Of a stretch of 15,275 nucleotides of DNA, positions 2,404-15,275 are shown in pieces. The first letter of the stretch is position 1, and each line of letters opens with the position of its first letter. The notes beneath the pieces were generated by a model that ran no database searches, was not told the origin of the DNA, and saw only the letters and a program-made list of their open reading frames with translations. The translations under genes were made by a program, and so were the position numbers. Where the stretch lies: the IMG/VR virus record IMGVR_UViG_2778261031_000003; one strand, given 5' to 3'. The stretch is from a virus. Taxonomy: Duplodnaviria > Heunggongvirae > Uroviricota > Caudoviricetes.

Positions 2404-3758
<1,355 letters not shown>

Positions 3759-3808
3759 TCCCCACCTCAATCTCGATAACCAAAAAACAAACTATTTTCC
3801 GTTTAAAA

Positions 3809-3882
3809 ACAATGGAGTTTGTTTTTCATGCCCCTTTTTACAATATTTCTTGTTTACAACATACAATCTTTCTTGTAATTTT
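3809..3882 (+). promoter_or_regulatory. 434-type left operators OL with pL
   Basis: Three 14-bp ACAA-N6-TTGT sites: acaatggagtttgt (3809-3822), acaatatttcttgt (3840-3853), acaatctttcttgt (3863-3876); candidate -35 tttaca (3854-3859) and -10 taattt (3876-3881) oriented toward N. Confidence 0.7.
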
Positions 3883-3921
3883 AAGCCATCAGCAGGACGC
3901 ACTGACCACCATTGAAGGTGA

Positions 3922-3952
3922 TGCTCTTAAAAATTAAGCCCTGAAGAAGGGC
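3922..3952 (+). promoter_or_regulatory. nutL (boxA variant tgctcttaaaaattaa, boxB gccctgaagaagggc at 3938-3952)
   Basis: Near-exact match to recalled lambda nutL; boxB is a 5-bp stem with a GAAGA loop. Confidence 0.85.
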
Positions 3953-4110
3953 AGCATTCAAAGCAGAAGGCTTTGGGGTGTGTGATACGAAACGAAGCAT
4001 TGGCCGGAAGTGCGAATCCGGATTAGCTGCAAATGAGCCAATCGTGGGGTGTTTTCGTTCAGGACTACGACTCACACACACCACCAAAGCTAACTGACAA
4101 GAGAATCCAG

Positions 4111-4434
4111 ATGGATGCACAAACACGCCGCCGCGAACGTCGCGCAGAGAAACAGGCTCAATGGAAAGCAGCAAATCCCCTGTTGGTTGGGGTAAGCGCA
4201 AAACCAGTTAACCGCCCTATTCTCTCGCTGAATCGCAAACCGAAATCACGAGTAGAAAGCGCACTGAATCCGATAGACCTTACGGTGCTGGCTGAATACC
4301 ACGAACAGATTGAAAGCAACCTGCAACGTATTGAGCGCAAGAATCATCGAGTTTGGTATAGCAAGCCAAGTGAGTTCGGTATAACTTGTCAAGGAAGACA
4401 AAAGGTTAAAGGGAAATCCATTCCATTGGCATGA
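4111..4434 (+). CDS. N: Antitermination protein N (107 aa)
   Basis: MDAQTRRRERRAEKQAQWKAANPLLVGVSAKPVNRPILSLNRKPKSRVESALNPIDLTVLAEYH... matches recalled lambda N, including the arginine-rich N-terminal motif. The track ORF start at 4033 is an upstream extension. Confidence 0.9.
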   Translation: MDAQTRRRERRAEKQAQWKAANPLLVGVSAKPVNRPILSLNRKPKSRVESALNPIDLTVLAEYHEQIESNLQRIERKNHRVWYSKPSEFGITCQGRQKVKGKSIPLA

Positions 4435-4442
4435 GGTACGTA

Positions 4443-5312
4443 ATGAAGAAAATTGATTACAAGTCCATACCAAAACCAATAGACTCAGCATCAGAGCGAA
4501 AAAAACACAAAAAAGAGGCTGAAAAATTAGCAAATTATATCAGTTTTATTAGAAACAATGCTCACGGCGATGGCGACAGGAAGTTGCTTTCAGATGCCCG
4601 GACCCAAGCGTTCAGCATACTTCGTAAGCAGATGCAATATCGTCTTCATCCAGGCTACATAATTGAAATTCGCCCGACTGAAAGACAATTGTTCTTATTA
4701 AACTCTGTCTTTGACTTTGTAAACGTAGTTGGAGATCTTATCGACAGGTCTGTAGATAAGGCTCCTGATACAAATAGTTTTCTTCTAACAAATAAAGAAT
4801 ACTTATATGGTAAATTTGGTATAAACGGATGGCAAAAATATGTACGATTCTTACGTGCATTCGTTGATGCGTATAAAAATTCCGACATGATTTATACATA
4901 TTTGCCTGGTGGTAATAATTGTACGCTTTCGGCAGACAATAGAATATTCATACCTATACTTGGTCTTGGGCTGATTAATGCAGTAAATGAAAGAGATGTT
5001 ATAATTGTTAAGCAGTGGCGAAAGCATGAGGGATATAGATATCTGCCATGCTTTGATATATTAAAAATACAGAATAAATTCTATGTGAAAATTAAATATA
5101 AAGAAGATGTTTTCTTCCTCAGAAAAAACAAAGATCTTTTACAAGAACTTTCTGGGACAATAGATGTCATCGTAGGTTCTAGGTTTATAAAAGAACTGAA
5201 AGAAAGCAGGTCTTTCTCTCGTGTAGAGATAAGCGAGTCAGAGTTATGGGGTATATCAAATAATCCTGTAAACCACGCTCACCAACGAAATCCAAACAAA
5301 AAGTGGTCATAA
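4443..5312 (+). CDS. Hypothetical protein (about 290 aa), AT-rich cargo gene A between N and cIII; candidate phage-exclusion/defence protein
   Basis: Long ORF with gaggt SD 7 nt upstream of the ATG at 4443. An alternative start at 4431 overlaps the N stop as ATGA. Very AT-rich and lysine/asparagine/isoleucine-rich; no lambda counterpart recognised. Confidence 0.7.
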   Translation: MKKIDYKSIPKPIDSASERKKHKKEAEKLANYISFIRNNAHGDGDRKLLSDARTQAFSILRKQMQYRLHPGYIIEIRPTERQLFLLNSVFDFVNVVGDLIDRSVDKAPDTNSFLLTNKEYLYGKFGINGWQKYVRFLRAFVDAYKNSDMIYTYLPGGNNCTLSADNRIFIPILGLGLINAVNERDVIIVKQWRKHEGYRYLPCFDILKIQNKFYVKIKYKEDVFFLRKNKDLLQELSGTIDVIVGSRFIKELKESRSFSRVEISESELWGISNNPVNHAHQRNPNKKWS

Positions 5313-5335
5313 CCCGCTCAGGCGGGTTTCATTTT
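5313..5335 (+). terminator. Intrinsic terminator after cargo gene A
   Basis: cccgc (5313-5317), loop tcag, gcggg (5322-5326), then tttcatttt. Confidence 0.5.
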
Positions 5336-5454
5336 CACGCAAACAATAGAATAAACACTGCACTGTGTATTCATTCCAACGAGTGAATACACGGAGCAAT
5401 GTCGCTCGTAACTAAACAGGAGTCGACTTGTTCTGATTATTGGAAATCTTCTTT

Positions 5455-5480
5455 GCCCTCCAGTATGAGGGCGATTTTTT
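5455..5480 (+). terminator. Intrinsic terminator immediately upstream of cargo gene B
   Basis: gccctc (5455-5460), loop cagtat, gagggc (5467-5472), followed by gatttttt. Confidence 0.7.
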
Positions 5481-5500
5481 ATCTGTGAGGATATGAATAG

Positions 5501-5869
5501 ATGTCAAACATCAAAAAATACATCATTGATTACGACTGGAAAGCATCAATAGAAATTGAAATCGACCATGACGTAATGACAGAGGAAAAACTTTACCAGA
5601 TTAATAATTTCTGGTCAGACTCTGAATACCGACTCAATAAACACGGCTCTGTATTAAATGCTGTATTAATCATGCTGGCGCAACATGCTCTGCTTATAGC
5701 AATTTCAAGCGACTTAAATGCATATGGTGTTGTGTGTGAGTTCGACTGGAATGATGGAAATGGTCAGGAAGGATGGCCTCCAATGGATGGTAGCGAAGGA
5801 ATAAGAATTACCGATATCGATACATCAGGAATATTTGATCCAGATGATATGACTATCAAAGCCGCCTGA
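5501..5869 (+). CDS. Hypothetical protein (122 aa), cargo gene B, acidic C-terminal region
   Basis: ORF with gagga SD about 9 nt upstream of the ATG at 5501; hydrophobic central segment and a D/E-rich C-terminus; no recognised lambda homologue. Confidence 0.65.
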   Translation: MSNIKKYIIDYDWKASIEIEIDHDVMTEEKLYQINNFWSDSEYRLNKHGSVLNAVLIMLAQHALLIAISSDLNAYGVVCEFDWNDGNGQEGWPPMDGSEGIRITDIDTSGIFDPDDMTIKAA

Positions 5870-5941
5870 GCGCGGCGTTACCGCATACCAATAACGCTTC
5901 ACTCGAGGCGTTTTTCGTTATGTATAAATAAGGAGCACACC

Positions 5942-6106
5942 ATGCAATATGCCATTGCAGGGTGGCCTGTTGCTGGCTGCCCTTCCGAATCTTTACTTGA
6001 ACGAATCACCCGTAAATTACGTGACGGATGGAAACGCCTTATCGACATACTTAATCAGCCAGGAGTCCCAAAAAATGGATCAAACACTTATGGCTATCCA
6101 GACTAA
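5942..6106 (+). CDS. cIII: CIII protein (54 aa; FtsH/HflB inhibitor)
   Basis: Manual translation gives [54 protein letters not shown], matching recalled lambda CIII. Below the ORF-track size cutoff; aggag SD upstream. Confidence 0.85.
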   Translation: MQYAIAGWPVAGCPSESLLERITRKLRDGWKRLIDILNQPGVPKNGSNTYGYPD

Positions 6107-6239
6107 ATTCACTATCGCCACTTTTATTGGCGATGAAAAGATGTTTCGTGAGGCCGTCGACGCTTATAAAAAATGGATATTAATACTGAAACTGAGATCA
6201 AGCAAAAGCATTCACTACCCCCCTTCCCTGTTTTTCTAA
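6075..6239 (+). CDS. kil: Kil (host cell-division inhibitor), about 54 aa here
   Basis: [43 protein letters not shown]... matches recalled lambda Kil; starts 31 nt before the cIII stop, as in lambda. The track ORF start at 5949 is an out-of-frame extension over cIII. The C-terminus appears a few residues longer than my recollection of lambda Kil. Confidence 0.7.
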
Positions 6240-6589
6240 TCAGCCCGGCATTTCGCGGACGATATTTTCACAGCTATTTCAGGAGTTCAGCCATGAACGC
6301 TTATTACATTCAGGATCGTCTTGAGGCTCAGAGCTGGGCGCGTCACTACCAGCAGATCGCCCGTGAAGAGAAAGAGGCAGAACTGGCAGACGACATGGAA
6401 AAAGGCCTGCCCCAGCACCTGTTTGAATCGCTATGCATCGATCATTTGCAACGCCACGGGGCCAGCAAAAAAGCCATTACCCGTGCGTTTGATGACGATG
6501 TTGAGTTTCAGGAGCGCATGGCAGAACACATCCGGTACATGGTTGAAACCATTGCTCACCATCAGGTTGATATTGATTCAGAGGTATAA
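6173..6589 (+). CDS. gam: Gam (RecBCD inhibitor, 138-aa long form; short form would start at the internal MNAYY)
   Basis: [74 protein letters not shown]... matches recalled lambda Gam. Confidence 0.9.
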
Positions 6590-6594
6590 AACGG

Positions 6595-7380
6595 ATGAGT
6601 ACAGCACTCGCAACGCTGGCTGGGAAGCTGGCTGAACGTGTCGGCATGGATTCTGTCGACCCACAGGAACTGATCACCACTCTTCGCCAGACGGCATTTA
6701 AAGGTGATGCCAGCGATGCGCAGTTCATCGCATTGTTGATCGTCGCCAACCAGTACGGCCTTAATCCGTGGACGAAAGAAATTTACGCCTTCCCTGATAA
6801 GCAGAACGGCATCGTTCCGGTGGTGGGCGTTGATGGCTGGTCCCGTATCATCAATGAAAACCAGCAGTTTGATGGCATGGACTTTGAGCAGGACAATGAA
6901 TCCTGCACATGCCGGATTTACCGCAAGGACCGTAATCATCCGATCTGCGTTACCGAGTGGATGGATGAATGCCGCCGCGAACCATTCAAAACCCGCGAAG
7001 GCAGAGAAATCACGGGGCCGTGGCAGTCGCATCCCAAACGGATGTTACGTCATAAAGCCATGATTCAGTGTGCCCGTCTGGCCTTCGGATTTGCTGGTAT
7101 CTATGACAAGGATGAAGCCGAGCGCATTGTCGAAAATACCGCATACACTGCAGAACGTCAGCCGGAACGCGACATCACTCCGGTTAACGATGAAACCATG
7201 CAGGAGATTAACACTCTGCTGATTGCCCTGGATAAAACATGGGATGACGACTTATTGCCGCTCTGTTCCCAGATATTTCGCCGCGACATTCGCGCATCGT
7301 CAGAACTGACACAGGCCGAAGCAGTGAAAGCTCTTGGATTCCTGAAACAGAAAGCCTCTGAGCAGAAGGTGGCTGCATGA
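6595..7380 (+). CDS. bet: Bet (Red-beta single-strand annealing protein, 261 aa)
   Basis: [72 protein letters not shown]... matches recalled lambda Bet. Confidence 0.95.
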
Positions 7381-8057
7381 CACCGGACATTATCCTGCAG
7401 CGTACCGGGATCGACGTGAGAGCTGTCGAACAGGGAGATGATGCGTGGAACAAATTACGACTCGGCGTCATCACGGCTTCAGAAGTTCACAATGTGATAG
7501 CAAAACCCCGCTCCGGTAAAAAGTGGCCTGACATGAAAATGTCCTACTTTCACACCCTGCTGGCTGAGATTTGCACCGGTGTGGCTCCGGAAGTTAACGC
7601 TAAGGCGCTGGCCTGGGGAAAACAGTACGAGAATGACGCCAGAGCCCTGTTTGAGTTTACTTCCGGCGTGAATGTTACTGAATCCCCGATCATCTATCGC
7701 GACGAAAGTATGCGCACCGCCTGCTCTCCCGATGGTTTATGCAGTGACGGCAACGGCCTTGAGCTGAAATGCCCGTTTACCTCCCGGGATTTCATGAAGT
7801 TCCGGCTCGGTGGTTTCGAGGCCATAAAGTCGGCTTACATGGCCCAGGTGCAGTACAGCATGTGGGTGACACGAAAAGATGCCTGGTACTTTGCCAACTA
7901 TGACCCACGAATGAAGCGTGAAGGCCTGCATTATGTCGTGGTTGAGCGGGATGAAAATTACATGGCGAGTTTTGACGAGATGGTGCCGGAGTTCATCGAA
8001 AAAATGGACGAGGCACTGGCTGAAATTGGTTTTGTATTTGGGGAGCAATGGCGATGA
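7377..8057 (+). CDS. exo: Exo (lambda exonuclease / Red-alpha, 226 aa)
   Basis: [64 protein letters not shown]... matches recalled lambda Exo; 4-nt overlap with the bet stop. Confidence 0.95.
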
Positions 8058-8236
8058 CGCATCCTCACGATAATATCCGGGTAGGCGCGATCACTTTCGT
8101 CTACTCCGTTACAAAGCGAGGCTGGGTATTTCCCGGCCTTTCTGTTATCAGAAATCCACTGAAAGCACAGCGGCTGGCTGAGAAGATAAATAATAAACGG
8201 GGAGCTGTATGCACAAAGCATCTCCTGTTGAGTTAA
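8054..8236 (+). CDS. Small lambda-like early-left ORF (60 aa; orf60a-like by position and size)
   Basis: ATGA overlap with the exo stop (8054-8057); [60 protein letters not shown]. Size and position fit the lambda ORF immediately downstream of exo; name assignment is from memory. Confidence 0.6.
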
Positions 8237-8400
8237 GAACGAGCATTGAGATGGCACATAGCCTCGCTCAAATTGGAGTCAGGTTTGTGCCAATACCAGT
8301 AGAAACAGACGAAGAATTTCATACGTTAGCCGCATCCCTTTCACAAAAGCTGGAAATGATGGTGGCGAAAGCAGAAGCAGATGAGAGAGACCAGGTATGA
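8209..8400 (+). CDS. Small lambda-like early-left ORF (63 aa; orf63-like)
   Basis: 63-aa ORF overlapping the previous ORF by 28 nt, the same arrangement I recall for lambda orf60a/orf63. Confidence 0.55.
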   Translation: MHKASPVELRTSIEMAHSLAQIGVRFVPIPVETDEEFHTLAASLSQKLEMMVAKAEADERDQV

Positions 8401-8480
8401 CAACCACTGAATGCATTTTTCTGGCAGCGGGCTTCATATTCTGTGTGCTTATGCTTGCCGACATGGGGCTTGTTCAATGA
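8397..8480 (+). CDS. Hypothetical 27-aa hydrophobic peptide (MTTTECIFLAAGFIFCVLMLADMGLVQ)
   Basis: ATGA overlaps at both ends (8397-8400 with the upstream stop, 8477-8480 with the downstream start) suggest translational coupling; predicted single transmembrane helix. Very short, so coding status is uncertain. Confidence 0.35.
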   Translation: MTTTECIFLAAGFIFCVLMLADMGLVQ

Positions 8481-8692
8481 CACCTCAGCAAGAAAACGCC
8501 CTTCGCAGTATTGCCCGTCAGGCTAATTCTGAAATCAAAAAAGCCAGACAGCAGTTTCCGGATAAAAACGTCGATGACATTTGCCGTAGCGTACTGAAGA
8601 AGCACCGCGAAACGGTAACGCTGATGGGATTCACACCGACTCATTTAAGCCTGGCGATCGGCATGTTGAACGGCGTCTTTAAGGAACGGTGA
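8477..8692 (+). CDS. Small lambda-like early-left protein (71 aa)
   Basis: MTPQQENALRSIARQANSEIKKARQQFPDKNVDDICRSVLKKHRETVTLMGFTPTHLSLAIGMLNGVFKER; ATG at 8477. The track ORF start at 8411 is an extension. Family assigned by position in the b-region, from memory. Confidence 0.55.
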   Translation: MTPQQENALRSIARQANSEIKKARQQFPDKNVDDICRSVLKKHRETVTLMGFTPTHLSLAIGMLNGVFKER

Positions 8693-8711
8693 ACATGAAA
8701 AGCAAAATCAT

Positions 8712-8740
8712 CAGGGAGCTACAGGCTCCTTTTTTATTAT
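8712..8740 (+). terminator. Intrinsic terminator-like hairpin plus T-run
   Basis: ggagc tacag gctcc followed by ttttttatt (about 8714-8740), downstream of the small-ORF chain. Confidence 0.5.
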
Positions 8741-8790
8741 TCGCATTTACCCTCAAGCGTATTAACCAACAATTCAGGGATTAATGAAAG

Positions 8791-9009
8791 ATGGCAGACA
8801 TCATTGATTCAGCATCAGAAATCGAAGAATTACAGCGCAATACAGCAATAAAAATGCGTCGTCTGAACTACCAGACTGTATCCGCAACTCATTGTTGTGA
8901 GTGTGGCGATCCGATAGATGAGCGAAGACGCCTGGCTGTTCAGGGTTGTCGGACTTGTGCGAGTTGCCAGGAGGAGATCGAACTTAAGAACAAACAATGG
9001 GGACTGTGA
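8791..9009 (+). CDS. TraR/DksA-family C4-type zinc-finger protein (72 aa)
   Basis: Two CxxC pairs (CCECGDPIDERRRLAVQGCRTCASCQ) with the spacing and short acidic N-terminal helix typical of phage/plasmid TraR-like proteins. Confidence 0.7.
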   Translation: MADIIDSASEIEELQRNTAIKMRRLNYQTVSATHCCECGDPIDERRRLAVQGCRTCASCQEEIELKNKQWGL

Positions 9010-9056
9010 TGGCCTCAAAGCAGCAAATTTCAACATCGTCCAACTGAGGTGTAAAA

Positions 9057-9335
9057 ATGTTCAGAATCATTTTTCCTAACACCTGGTACGTCGACCACCA
9101 CGGCACTCCCTGCAAAATCCTGCGTTCTACCCACAACAAAGTTCACTACATCCGAAAAGGCAGAACATGTATCGCCAGCATGTTCCGCTTTAATCATGAC
9201 TTTGAACCTGTGAATAAAGCTGATGCAGATCGGATAGCAGAAGAGATCGAAACGGCAGAACACATTAAGAAGTTACGTGACATGCGTTCAAAAAGCAGAG
9301 GTAACCATGGAATCATACAGCCTCACACTCGATGA
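9057..9335 (+). CDS. Hypothetical protein (92 aa) upstream of xis
   Basis: ORF ending 29 nt inside the xis start; no recognisable family by eye. Confidence 0.4.
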   Translation: MFRIIFPNTWYVDHHGTPCKILRSTHNKVHYIRKGRTCIASMFRFNHDFEPVNKADADRIAEEIETAEHIKKLRDMRSKSRGNHGIIQPHTR

Positions 9336-9678
9336 GGCCTGTCAGTTTCTTAAGATATCCAGACCAACCGCCACCAACTGGATACGAACAGGCCGCCTAC
9401 AGGCAACACGTAAAGATCCAACCAAGCCAAAATCTCCTTACCTCACAACACGGCAAGCCTGCATTGCGGCGCTTCAGTCTCCGCTGCATACTGTCCAGGT
9501 GAGCGCGGGTGATGGCATAACAGAGGAAAGAAAATGTCACTCTTCCGCAGAAATGAAATATGGTATGCCTCGTATTCGCTCCCGGGCGGGAAACGAATTA
9601 AGGAATCTCTTGGCACAAAGGACAAGCGGCAAGCTCAGGAGTTGCACGACAAGCGAAAAGCAGAACTCTAGCGAGTAG
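9307..9678 (+). CDS. xis: Excisionase (P22/DLP12-type Xis)
   Basis: [70 protein letters not shown]... matches recalled P22-type Xis; ATG at 9307 preceded by the track ORF extension from 9277. The frame runs 145 nt into the int reading frame before its TAG at 9676-9678. Confidence 0.75.
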
Positions 9679-10697
9679 AAAAGCTAGGGGATTTACCTGA
9701 TGTCACTTTTGAAGAGGCCTGCCTAAGATGGCTTGAGGAAAAAGCTGATAAAAAATCTCTCGATTCAGATAAAAGCCGGATTGAGTTCTGGCTTGAACAT
9801 TTTGAGGGTATAAGGCTTAAAGATATCTCGGAGGCAAAGATTTACTCTGCTGTAAGCAGAATGCATAACAGAAAGACGAAAGAAATATGGAAACAGAAAG
9901 TTCAGGCCGCCATCAGGAAAGGTAAAGAACTGCCTGTTTATGAACCAAAGCCAGTATCAACTCAGACAAAGGCAAAGCATCTTGCCATGATAAAGGCCAT
10001 TCTCCGTGCTGCAGAACGCGACTGGAAGTGGCTGGAAAAAGCGCCTGTCATCAAGATACCAGCGGTCAGAAACAAGCGAGTCAGATGGCTGGAAAAGGAG
10101 GAAGCAAAACGCCTTATTGATGAGTGCCCCGAACCACTGAAATCTGTCGTCAAGTTTGCGCTGGCAACTGGTCTGAGAAAGTCGAACATCATAAATCTGG
10201 AATGGCAACAAATCGACATGCAGCGACGAGTTGCCTGGGTGAATCCAGAAGAGAGCAAATCAAACCGCGCCATTGGTGTGGCGCTGAACGATACCGCCTG
10301 TAAAGTGTTGCGTGATCAAATAGGCAAGCATCACAAATGGGTGTTTGTACATACCAAGGCGGCTAAGCGAGCAGATGGAACATCAACGCCTGCGGTCAGG
10401 AAGATGCGCATCGACAGCAAGACATCATGGCTATCAGCTTGTCGTCGTGCAGGAATTGAAGATTTCCGTTTCCATGACCTCAGACACACCTGGGCAAGCT
10501 GGCTGATTCAGTCAGGCGTCCCATTATCAGTGCTTCAGGAAATGGGCGGATGGGAGTCCATAGAAATGGTTCGTAGGTATGCTCACCTTGCGCCTAATCA
10601 TTTGACAGAGCATGCGAGGAAAATAGACGACATTTTTGGTGATAATGTCCCAAATATGTCCCACTCTGGAATTATGGAGGATATAAAGAAGGCGTAA
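9534..10697 (+). pseudogene. int: Tyrosine integrase, P22/DLP12 (IntD)-type, 388 codons with an in-frame TAG at codon 46 (9669-9671)
   Basis: Translation from the ATG at 9534 gives [45 protein letters not shown][28 protein letters not shown]..., continuing in the same frame into the 278-aa track ORF (9861-10697), which holds the catalytic C-terminus ([10 protein letters not shown]...VRRYAHL). Recalled P22 Int has W at the position of the stop. Confidence 0.8.
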
Positions 10698-10712
10698 CTG
10701 ATTGAATTGTAA

Positions 10713-10789
10713 TGGCGCGCCCTGCAGGATTCGAACCTGCGGCCCACGACTTAGAAGGTCGTTGCTCTATCCAACTGAGCTAAGGGCGC
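10713..10789 (-). tRNA. argU: tRNA-Arg (anticodon UCU), argU-like; prophage integration target
   Basis: Reverse complement reads GCGCCCTTAGCTCAGTTGGATAGAGCAACGACCTTCTAAGTCGTGGGCCGCAGGTTCGAATCCTGCAGGGCGCGCCA: cloverleaf-compatible, anticodon loop CT-TCT-AA, 3' CCA encoded. The int stop lies 16 nt from the tRNA 3' end. Confidence 0.9.
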
Positions 10790-11031
10790 GTTGATACCGC
10801 AATGCGGTGTAATCGCGTGAATTATACGGTCAACCCTTGCTGAGTCAATGGCTTTTGATCTGGTTGCTGAACAAGTGAACGACCGCGTCTGATTTTCTGA
10901 TTTATTTCGCTATAGTGGCAAACAAACGCACACCGCTGCGCGTCTGAATCAAGAAAACCCGTATTTTCATGTATCAAAGTACAATTTACCGCCCTAACGG
11001 AAAATTGTCCGCTCCTATGAGACTGGTAACT

Positions 11032-11664
11032 ATGAAACCAACGTCGGTGATCATTATGGATACTCATCCTATCATCAGAATGTCTATTGAAGTTCTGTTG
11101 CAAAAAAACAGTGAATTGCAGATTGTCCTGAAAACGGATGATTACCGCATAACCATCGATTATCTCCGAACCCGTCCTGTTGATTTAATCATTATGGATA
11201 TAGACTTGCCCGGAACAGACGGTTTTACCTTCCTGAAAAGGATCAAACAAATCCAGAGCACAGTGAAAGTGTTATTTTTATCATCGAAATCAGAATGCTT
11301 TTATGCTGGCAGAGCGATACAAGCTGGTGCTAACGGTTTTGTCAGTAAATGCAATGATCAGAATGATATTTTTCATGCCGTTCAGATGATCCTCTCCGGA
11401 TACACGTTTTTTCCTAGCGAAACGCTTAACTATATAAAAAGCAATAAATGTAGTACGAATAGTTCAACGATCACTGTGCTATCTAATCGTGAAGTGACCA
11501 TATTACGTTATCTGGTTAGCGGATTATCTAATAAAGAAATTGCCGATAAGTTATTACTTAGCAATAAAACAGTTAGTGCGCATAAATCTAATATTTATGG
11601 CAAGCTAGGTTTGCATTCAATTGTAGAGCTTATCGACTACGCCAAATTATACGAATTAATATAA
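11032..11664 (+). CDS. fimZ: LuxR/FixJ-family two-component response regulator FimZ (210 aa)
   Basis: Receiver domain (IIMDIDLPGTDGF) plus C-terminal LuxR-type HTH (LSNREVTILRYLVSGLSNKEIADKLLLSNKTVSAHKSNIYGKLG); matches recalled FimZ and its position between argU and the sfm operon. The track ORF start at 10969 is an extension. Confidence 0.85.
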   Translation: MKPTSVIIMDTHPIIRMSIEVLLQKNSELQIVLKTDDYRITIDYLRTRPVDLIIMDIDLPGTDGFTFLKRIKQIQSTVKVLFLSSKSECFYAGRAIQAGANGFVSKCNDQNDIFHAVQMILSGYTFFPSETLNYIKSNKCSTNSSTITVLSNREVTILRYLVSGLSNKEIADKLLLSNKTVSAHKSNIYGKLGLHSIVELIDYAKLYELI

Positions 11665-12192: not shown

Positions 12193-13170
12193 TCATTGAT
12201 AATCGACGCGTAAATACCCCAGCGCGCTAAACGGCCCCTCGGTCGGTTTTTGACCGGTAATACTGATAGGCCAGGCGCGAAGTGTGACATTGGCTGCCGC
12301 AGCTGCATCCAGACGGAAAGGAATAACGCTATTGAGATCGTTAGGCGTAATCGGCGTATCGTTCTGATCGGCGACAATAAAACCTAAATCCTGATTGTCC
12401 GACACCATCGCCTGACCAGAAACGGCACTGGCTTCCAGACGCATTGTTAAATAAGCCTGCGCAGCAACATTCGTACATTTGACCGCAATGCTCTTGGTTT
12501 GCGGCATGACGCCAGCTGGTCGATTCCCCGGCCCTGCCGCACTAAATAACGATGCGCCGATATCACCAAAATCAAATTCAACAATCTGCCCGGCATTTAA
12601 TTCGCAGTTTTGCGGCACTTCAACCCGGCCACCAAAACTAATGGTATAAACAGGTGTAACCAACGGATCGTAAGGCGTTGATGTCACATACACGGTAAAC
12701 ATCACCTGTCTGGGGATCTCCACCATGTTAATAAAGGGACGAATAACCTTTAAACGAAATATTAAACGAGAATCCATCACCCCGAATGGAAGGTTTTGCG
12801 AAACGTTAGGATCTGTTCCCATCCGAATATAATTTTGCGGGGGGAACTGAATATCCATCACACTATCAACCAGACTCATCGCACCTAATAGATAATCATG
12901 TAATTGCATATATTTATAATTATCGATAGTTTCCTGAACAATAAAGTTGGTGACATAACTACGGTATGTATAATTCACCAGCGTACCGGGTGGACAAATT
13001 GCTGAGACACCTACCCAGCCGGATTTTTCCGGTAAAACAACAATCTGCCCTGGCTGGTTATTGGTGCTATTAAAGATATTTGAGAGATCATAGTGTTCAT
13101 CTTCTGCTACGCCAGTACTATTTGCACAAACAGTAGCCCAGGATATGTTTGCCAGACACAAACATGCCAT
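12193..13170 (-). CDS. sfmH: Fimbrial adhesin-like protein (SfmH/FimH-like); start codon uncertain
   Basis: Open frame of 376 codons overlapping the usher 3' end. The first in-frame ATG after the usher stop is at 13168-13170 (MACLCLANISWA...); a TTG lies at 13174-13176; a fuller signal peptide ([26 protein letters not shown]) lies upstream but has no canonical start codon. Confidence 0.7.
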   Translation of the reverse strand: MACLCLANISWATVCANSTGVAEDEHYDLSNIFNSTNNQPGQIVVLPEKSGWVGVSAICPPGTLVNYTYRSYVTNFIVQETIDNYKYMQLHDYLLGAMSLVDSVMDIQFPPQNYIRMGTDPNVSQNLPFGVMDSRLIFRLKVIRPFINMVEIPRQVMFTVYVTSTPYDPLVTPVYTISFGGRVEVPQNCELNAGQIVEFDFGDIGASLFSAAGPGNRPAGVMPQTKSIAVKCTNVAAQAYLTMRLEASAVSGQAMVSDNQDLGFIVADQNDTPITPNDLNSVIPFRLDAAAAANVTLRAWPISITGQKPTEGPFSALGYLRVDYQ

Positions 13171-13211
13171 CGCCAATAATAATCTGCAGATTATCTTATT
13201 GATAATTTCCT

Positions 13212-15275
13212 TTATGAGCCAGGATGTGTGCAAACTGCCGAAATAACAGTGACGGCTTGCTGTAAGCTTTGCTTCGGCAATACATAGTGCGCAATGCAGC
13301 GTGAGTTCGCGCCGTCTCCCCACTGAACCAGTAATTCACCAGACAATGGCGCACCACTTAAATAAACTTGCCCGTCATCACCCACCATACTGGTTATTCC
13401 GGTACTGTTTTCCCGTACCAGTGATCCAAACGGCACCGGTTTTCCGCCCTGGGTAACGGTAATGAGCGCCCGCACGCCTATGCGGGTATCAAAATTGGCA
13501 CGAACCAACGCGCCTTGCGTCGGCACAACGCTGCTAATATTTTTTTCAACATCGATGGAATTCCCCATCGTATTGGTATCAAGCGCGATACGGTTATACC
13601 GATAAACCGTGGCATACGGCATCACCGCATAGCCGCGCCAGTCGGTTAAAATGCCAGTTTGATTTTCAATGCGTACACCGCCTGCGCCAGGTGCTTTAAT
13701 CAAAACATTGGTATCCCCTAAAGGCTGGCTCAGCGTTATGCCATTTTCATGCCCGACCACACCGCCAGACAGCTGCCAGTTAACGTCATGTTGATCGCGG
13801 TCGTAGTTATACCCGACCCCCAGCGTACCGTAAGCGGCCTGCCAGTTTGCCGTGGCGCTGCCCGTGTACCCATTATTCGAGGTATCACCCTGGCTTACGT
13901 GATAACTCAGGTTGTGGCCTTCCAGTAAGGTCCCACCTACACCTGCCAGCCAGCTATTTTGCCCGTTGCTGTTACGGTTGGCGTTAAAGGAGGCATAAGC
14001 GCGGTCGAGCGCATTTTCCCGGGTGTAGCGACGTTTGGTCAAAACATTGAAAGGCACTGAAACATTAAGTCCGACAATACGTTCGTTATCGGGGATCCCT
14101 ACAGATTCATTCCACGAAAATGAGAGCGAATAACTGATGCCAACCCAGCTGCTGGTATACCCCACCTGATACCACGTATCTGAATCCGAAGTATTCCAGT
14201 ATTTTTGATGGGTACCAGAGATATAAAGCGAGCCAAAGTCATTAAGTGATTGTGAAATATTTAACTGCAAACGGTCTTTACGGCTAAAGCGTAAATTGTG
14301 GTAATTCACGATTATCGGTTCATCGCGATGCTCACCGTCGTAATCGTAATCATATTCGTACCCCTCCATTCGACGATACGCAACATCATCAAGGGTATAA
14401 AAACCTTGTGTCGAATAGCGGTAACCCATTAACTGAAAATTGGTGCCGAAGGTGTTCATTGATTTCGCATAGAGGAAGCGAATGGAATCCCCCTCATGAC
14501 GACTGTCGTCGGCTAACTGACTGCGCGCATGCGTTACATCCAGCGACACTGCGCCCCAGTTCCCGAGGTTGCGCCCCAGCCCTAACAAAAAGGCGGTGTA
14601 ATTGGCAGATAATTGCGTCCCGCCGTAGGCAGTAAATTCCTGTGGTAAACCACCGAGTGCCGTGCCCTGAAAAAAGAAAGGTGATGATTGCTGACTATTA
14701 CCGCTACGAAAATCGCCCGCCGTCAGATCAAATTTGAAACGCCCTTCGCGTTGTAAAATTGGCACTGTTGAATACGGAATTGTGTAATTCTGCTGATTGC
14801 CATCGCGCTCGTCGATGGTGACGTCCAGATCGCCATTTGAAGATGTCGGGTGCAAATCTGTAATTTCAAAAGCGCCGGGGGAAACATAGCTTTGATAGAT
14901 AATAAAACCATTTTGCCGAATCGTTAGCTGGGCCGCCGTACGGGCAATCCCACGTACCGTTGGGGCAAACCCTTGCTGGCTATCAGGATACATATTATCA
15001 GAAGAATAAAGCCGTACACCACGAAATCCAACGCCATCGAAAATATCACTTCCTGTATTGCCGTCTCCCATTACCAGTTCACTTTTCAGCGGAATAATGG
15101 CGCGCTGTACCCAGGTGCCAATATTATTCCACTGTTCTGAATGATATCCATTTCCGCGAAAATAGTTCCAGGAACCATTGTTGCGTAAACGCCACGGGGG
15201 CTTTGTTGAATAAATCGAACTTTTGCTGAGTTGAAGGATCAGATCACGTATCTTCCCGACAACGCAGACCGTTCC
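13212..15275 (-). CDS. sfmD: Fimbrial outer-membrane usher (SfmD/FimD-like), N-terminally truncated by the window edge
   Basis: The frame stays open from the stop at 13212-13214 to the window end (manual translation of 15072-15275 shows no stop: ...[39 protein letters not shown]...). 688 codons in the window; ushers are typically about 850-870 aa. Confidence 0.85.

Follow-up and report, generated by a model that had tools for sequence, protein, structure and literature searches.

The argU end of a lambda-like prophage

The DNA analysed here (the window, 15,275 nt) carries a lambda-type early region comprising ninB, ren, P, O, cII, cro, cI, N, cIII, kil, gam, bet and exo, which lies upstream of an excisionase gene (xis, 9307–9678, + strand) and an intD-type, P22-like tyrosine integrase gene (int, 9534–10697, + strand). 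The tRNA-Arg(UCU) gene argU (10713–10789, − strand), identified by ARAGORN and by the RefSeq annotation of the identical region, lies 16 nt past the int stop codon and is the integration target of the prophage. This is the locus occupied by DLP12 in K-12. The 3′ part of argU forms a 47-bp attachment-site repeat, whose int-proximal copy spans 10711–10757 (no strand assigned). The far end of the prophage lies outside the window and was seen in the complete genome of Escherichia coli EM18-18-42, where an exact 47-bp direct repeat is found between ompT and envY. The locus has the layout of a tRNA-targeting module, with int beside a tRNA gene and a second copy of the 3′ part of that gene at the other end of the element. 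Free phage genomes are homologous to the window up to about 10757–10764, and the host genes fimZ, sfmF, sfmH and sfmD follow past argU.

The early-region genes are called as complete ORFs both in the contig GCA_002229465.1 NLMX01000069.1 and in a RefSeq relative, which bears out the statement of an earlier reading made from the letters of the window (the sequence-only reading) that the rest of the early region looks intact. At the opposite edge of the window, the last 77 nt (15199–15275) are the start of an IS903B-type (IS5 family) element that interrupts the fimbrial usher gene sfmD. This insertion is missing from EM18-18-42 and from strains whose flank is 100% identical.

Two plus-strand ORFs lie directly beside known early genes. 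Immediately downstream of N, 4443–5312 encodes a 289-aa protein (phrog_12139) with no Pfam or PADLOC match, which ends in ...VNHAHQRNPNKKWS and whose last 20 residues match the C-terminus of a Nun-like termination factor (phrog_5632, E = 4e-5). Judged by this match, the 3′ end of a nun-like gene may form a mosaic joint here, or the product may have borrowed the RNA-polymerase-arresting tail of Nun. Directly downstream of cI, 3354–3758 encodes a 134-aa ORF (phrog_2651), again with no match in Pfam or PADLOC; because lambda has rexAB at the same position, this ORF is a candidate accessory or exclusion gene.

The xis gene encodes a 123-aa protein with an HTH_17 domain (Pfam E = 1.2e-8), which is 78% identical to the 116-aa Xis of the P22-like phage L in an end-to-end alignment. 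The overlap between xis and int is 145 nt, as against 124 nt in phage L, and the two genes form an Int/Xis excision module, with the directionality-factor gene just upstream of the integrase gene and running into it. PGAP marks just the first 66 nt of xis (10008–10073 of record L001) as an ‘incomplete HTH’ pseudogene, in genomes with either version of the int codon described below, and this 66-nt call is probably an annotation artefact repeated across very many E. coli genomes.

An amber codon at position 46 of the integrase

Translation of 9534–10697 opens with ATG at 9534 and reads MSLFRR...KRKAEL through 45 codons (9534–9668) before reaching TAG at 9669–9671, which is codon 46; 341 sense codons then follow in the same frame up to TAA at 10695–10697. 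The gene is accordingly a 387-codon pseudogene, as the translation, the similarity to P22 Int and the PGAP annotation all indicate. The surrounding 1.6-kb block (9300–10900) is at least 99.9% identical to the intD–argU region of many E. coli genomes. Against the corresponding region of E. coli 720632, in which intD is annotated as intact, the sole mismatch in a 1,501-nt alignment is G to A at 9670. This alignment holds no indel, which makes the lesion a nonsense substitution rather than a frameshift: a G-to-A transition that turned the Trp46 codon TGG into amber TAG. The interrupted frame, its continuation to the normal stop and the single TGG-to-TAG change had all been proposed in the sequence-only reading, and each is confirmed here.

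Since xis and int overlap, xis codon 122 begins at base 9670, and the same transition produces G122S in Xis, a point not made in the first reading. The substitution sits in a 7-residue C-terminal tail that is absent from P22-type Xis (that of phage L), which makes an effect on Xis function unlikely, as far as the sequence comparison can tell.

The restored protein, with Trp at codon 46, is a P22/IntD-type integrase. It aligns with P22 Int without gaps over 378 residues at 72% identity, and with the integrases of three other temperate phages at 81–86% identity. Trp46 is present in all of these, being invariant in five phage integrases, and the statement in the earlier reading that P22 Int has tryptophan at this site proved right. 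Both Met1 and Trp46 are also invariant in 39 aligned family representatives from Salmonella, Citrobacter, Klebsiella, Cronobacter and Escherichia. More than 6,000 relatives came up in a database search; among the 120 closest clusters listed, lengths are 383–387 aa save for two shorter, partial entries. Members of the family therefore use the same Met start, and the idea named in the sequence-only reading as a refutation, that such integrases normally begin downstream of this position, does not hold. The window gene shares the start, the length and the colinearity with P22 Int that mark the subfamily, yet its frame is interrupted at codon 46: it is a member by descent and a pseudogene by state.

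The catalytic part of the protein lies wholly beyond the stop. Residues 184–355 of the restored Int (window 10083–10598) match Pfam PF00589 (Phage_integrase) with E = 5.2e-47 and 160 bits, against a cut-off of 27.1. The longest post-stop ORF, 278 aa from Met110 (9861–10697, + strand), contains the complete catalytic domain (E = 6.7e-47). The active-site motifs TGLR215, H314-D-L-R317 and R-R-Y349-A-H are intact in frame downstream of the amber codon and align to LRH...RYAH of HP1 integrase (1aih) and to box I of lambda Int, and by this homology catalytic roles were assigned to R215 of box I, to H314-x-x-R317 and, as the nucleophile of box II, to Y349. PDB sequence searches matched the catalytic domain only (HP1 Int and XerA/C/D); residues 1–160 gave no PDB sequence match in either single-sequence or 5-sequence profile searches.

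For the N-terminal region that precedes the stop, residues 3–45 gave a sub-threshold match to Pfam DUF6538 (17 bits against 27). An AlphaFold2 model, built from a 39-sequence alignment at 78–81% identity, places strands at residues 2–6, 9–15 and 21–26 and a helix at residues 31–46, with low confidence (pLDDT 57.7, pTM 0.36). These three predicted strands and the helix presumably recall the arm-binding domain of lambda Int, low as the confidence of the model is, and by analogy with lambda Int residues 1–45 would be an arm-DNA-binding module. A direct hhalign comparison of IntD with lambda Int aligned box I alone, at a probability of 1%, and placed IntD residue 196 opposite lambda residue 193, which gives a rough register only.

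Occurrence of the allele and decay of its carriers

A 61-mer around the site occurs in 1,639 of 5,426 complete E. coli genomes. The exact TGG version is found in 1,551 of these 1,639, and the TAG version in one. That one genome is E. coli EM18-18-42 (chicken meat, Laos), in which the int block and the window show 100% identity and RefSeq/PGAP labels intD ‘pseudo, internal stop’, which supports the core of the sequence-only reading, namely a P22/IntD-type integrase hit by a nonsense mutation. For this genome, Nanopore reads were assembled with Flye, and Pilon was used for polishing with Illumina reads (PMC8350485).

Beyond the window, the TAG allele was found in at least 10 other sequence records that were checked, which span NCBI draft genomes, ENA metagenome assemblies, Logan raw-run assemblies, IMG/VR and the hybrid complete genome, and which come from differing groups, assemblers and data types. 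Because the mutation also alters Xis, the Xis-S122 sequence identifies the allele specifically; an exact look-up with it returned 17 contigs from NCBI, ENA and Logan, including two metagenome assemblies from ENA and two run assemblies from Logan, and all eight places returned for them carry TAG. One of the 17, the contig GCA_002229465.1 NLMX01000069.1, equals the window at 100% over 15,253 nt and is evidently its source. A scan of IMG/VR with a TAG-specific 35-mer gave one match, UViG_2778261502_000010, which carries the allele, and the same 35-mer was found in none of the GTDB species-representative genomes or JGI metagenome contigs.

Could the true base at 9670 nevertheless be G, and int intact? 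The occurrence of TAG in just one of 1,639 complete genomes would fit a sequencing or assembly artefact, as would the two 1-bp homopolymer deletions of the EM18-18-42 prophage, which are typical of long-read assemblies. Against this, the same base recurs in the varied records listed above, the int segment is single-copy in EM18-18-42 and, by our own reading of the sequence, the change at 9670 lies outside homopolymers, Dam sites (GATC) and Dcm sites (CCWGG). The presence of the allele in many independent assemblies excludes a base-call error for practical purposes and led us to reject assembly error; we regard an artefact as extremely improbable.

The carriers do not form one clone. The allele spans at least seven distinguishable prophage or flank backgrounds: one carrier (L024) has 42 differences from the window across 4.4 kb of host flank, and L026 and EM18-18-42 differ from it at about 80–100 sites, mostly in the phage early region, with 106 differences in EM18-18-42 outside 9004–11651. 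In eight of ten carriers, int is otherwise identical to the common wild-type haplotype. The other changes are P330T, at an invariant residue, in L027, and L133P in L029 (Logan ERR8574424_244).

Several carriers have decayed further. L029 lacks window 7187–8075, that is, the 3′ end of bet together with exo (junction at L029 5488–5495), and has a different immunity/replication region, of YdaS/YdaT type, which shows mosaic exchange around the same int allele. The IMG/VR carrier (L012, IMGVR_UViG_2778261502_000010) has a 5.2-kb deletion corresponding to window 4095–9301, from N through the gene before xis (junction 1391–1396), which fuses the region just upstream of N to xis–int, with the loss of N, cIII, kil, gam, bet and exo. 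The EM18-18-42 prophage is about 45 kb long and bounded by the exact 47-bp argU 3′-end repeat. It shows an apparent −1 frameshift in quuD, the Q antiterminator gene (A4 to A3), an apparent −1 frameshift in the portal gene (G5 to G4) and a second Trp-to-stop change, TGG to TGA, in a tail-fibre assembly gene (3680–4062, 12198–13798 and 32494–33069 of record L003, respectively). The 1-bp indels of this genome may be real or may be residual Nanopore errors. Apart from IS elements and genes interrupted by them, two control 50-kb stretches of EM18-18-42 were free of pseudogenes due to frameshifts or stops. nfrA and nfrB, host genes lying right beside this prophage, are also apparently frameshifted.

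Such secondary decay fits a grounded prophage under relaxed selection. Whether the inactivation is as recent as the sequence-only reading suggested can be answered in part: most carriers have no other change in int, which speaks for a young lesion, and the allele already occurs in at least seven backgrounds, several of them further decayed, which speaks against a very recent one. We infer that the shared allele reflects descent and recombination. Most simply, a single and relatively recent origin of the stop was followed by inheritance, while the flanks recombined and the grounded prophage began to erode, although recurrent mutation and shared descent are not formally separable, since the TAG haplotype is otherwise the commonest wild-type one.

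Other lesions of intD are common in E. coli. The 278-aa C-terminal intD product occurs in 216 blocks of a public assembly index, and the ten such places inspected (L013–L022) revealed ten other 5′ lesions of intD, including loss of the start codon (ATG to ATA), L54 TTA to TGA, a frameshift, IS5-like and IS3-like insertions and several deletions. Inactivation of the argU integrase is thus a recurrent event in E. coli, and with at least ten independent 5′ lesions the gene appears to be a frequent target.

Probable loss of excision and comparison with known systems

In lambda and P22, excision requires Int together with Xis acting on attL and attR, so a prophage without Int is grounded and inherited with the chromosome. 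In suppressor-free E. coli, translation of the window gene would end after 45 residues, within the N-terminal module, and no functional Int would be made, the core-binding and catalytic parts all being encoded past the stop. By analogy with these phages, the amber prophage would have lost excision, even though xis is intact and the att repeat is intact in the carrier EM18-18-42. We consider it very probable that the allele is a real loss-of-function form of int in a lambda-like prophage at argU, and that the prophage cannot excise precisely. Integrase or att mutations are known to ground prophages (PMC6379469), and in K-12 excision of the prophage Qin, whose integrase is inactive, was not detected, whereas excision does occur, at a low rate, in DLP12, which has an intact intD (PMC3105296).

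Three routes by which excision might persist have to be weighed against this loss-of-function reading, and the least improbable supplies Int in trans, from another prophage or a superinfecting phage of the same specificity, so that the prophage would not be locked at all. P22/IntD-type integrases abound among E. coli prophages and free phages, some genomes hold up to two copies of the segment, and xis and the att sites are intact. EM18-18-42 has one copy of the int segment, though, and even if excised its prophage carries the apparent frameshifts in the Q antiterminator and portal genes; we think such rescue unlikely. More doubtful still, at very long odds, is read-through of the amber codon, whether thanks to a suppressor tRNA of the host or a phage or to natural near-cognate decoding, with enough full-length Int made for excision and the stop acting as an attenuator. 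Low-level read-through of UAG is known in E. coli, the intact xis and att repeat would give such an Int something to work on, and most carriers lack a second int lesion. In EM18-18-42, the one carrier in which these supE loci were read, the anticodons of glnV and glnX are wild-type CUG, so that it has no supE there; argU is the sole tRNA gene in the window, and none is annotated in the EM18-18-42 prophage. Trp46 is moreover invariant, so that Gln, Tyr or Lys in its place may fail to restore function, the two carriers with extra nonsynonymous changes in int (one at the invariant P330) and the others that lost neighbouring phage genes fit relaxed selection, and the allele is rare and not the family norm. 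Programmed recoding of the stop was rejected, given that 1,551 of 1,639 E. coli copies and all 39 representatives lack the stop, and that neither an extra tRNA in the window nor supE in EM18-18-42 was found.

Reinitiation past the stop, the escape route named in the sequence-only reading, fared worst. The ORF from Met110 does hold a complete catalytic domain and could in principle yield an N-terminally truncated, active recombinase able to excise the prophage. Codons 47–109, however, contain no in-frame ATG, GTG or TTG, and the first candidate, ATG at 9861, lies 190 nt past the stop and is preceded by tttactctgctgtaagcaga, without a properly spaced Shine–Dalgarno sequence. Its product would lack residues 1–109; with them would go the entire N-terminal module and, if the rough register with lambda Int is followed, approximately half the core-binding domain. 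Fragments of lambda Int without the arm-binding domain keep cleavage and topoisomerase activity and lose arm-dependent attL × attR recombination; the P22 att sites are likewise reported to use arm-type sites (Smith-Mungo et al. 1994). We judge reinitiation to be highly improbable, even beside read-through.

The loss-of-function reading leaves a lesion that is real and ordinary: the pseudogene is already annotated in RefSeq and is mechanistically nothing new. It represents a textbook first step of domestication, in which one point mutation has hit int while xis, the att site and the early genes are still intact, and the sister copies show the later steps of deletion, frameshift and further substitution. 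Prophage-prediction tools may score the element as intact, with precise excision and a normal phage yield unlikely unless Int is supplied in trans. The carriers form a possible small natural time series for the rate at which a grounded prophage decays, which is of modest use; beyond annotation, the allele matters little. The occurrence of the allele in at least seven backgrounds could mean that a grounded prophage is mildly favoured, and on this basis one may speculate that the amber codon is more than a passive casualty. A grounded argU prophage would keep immunity and cargo such as ompT, appY and the porin gene without the risk of excision and would spread by homologous recombination, or the 45-residue peptide would bind arm-type sites and hinder an incoming Int of the same specificity. 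We give this idea very little credence.

The closest known systems are DLP12 IntD and the free argU lambdoid phages (Escherichia phages 2G7b, ev243 and PhiR68_2), whose int genes are 99.8–99.9% identical to that of the window at the nucleotide level and share its argU adjacency, its xis–int overlap and its protein length of 387 aa. They differ at codon 46, which is TGG in these intact genes and TAG in the window; DLP12 is moreover a 21-kb remnant, whereas the amber prophage is lambda-like and of full size, with about 45 kb in EM18-18-42. In P22, too, xis overlaps the 5′ end of int, and the phage inserts itself at the 3′ end of a tRNA gene, as in the window, with thrW as the target instead of argU; its int is intact and its 116-aa Xis lacks the tail that holds G122S. 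The classical int amber mutants of lambda and P22 show lysogeny or excision only under suppression or with Int in trans. Those laboratory alleles were obtained by selection, whereas the allele described here is natural and has been inherited by several wild strains. A parallel in terms of fate is intQ of the grounded K-12 prophage Qin, in which an inactive integrase and the loss of excision were followed by gene erosion (PMC6379469; PMC3105296), the same course as we propose here. Compared with Qin-like grounded prophages, erosion in the window is at an early stage, the single stop codon being the sole lesion seen in an early region that otherwise reads as intact.
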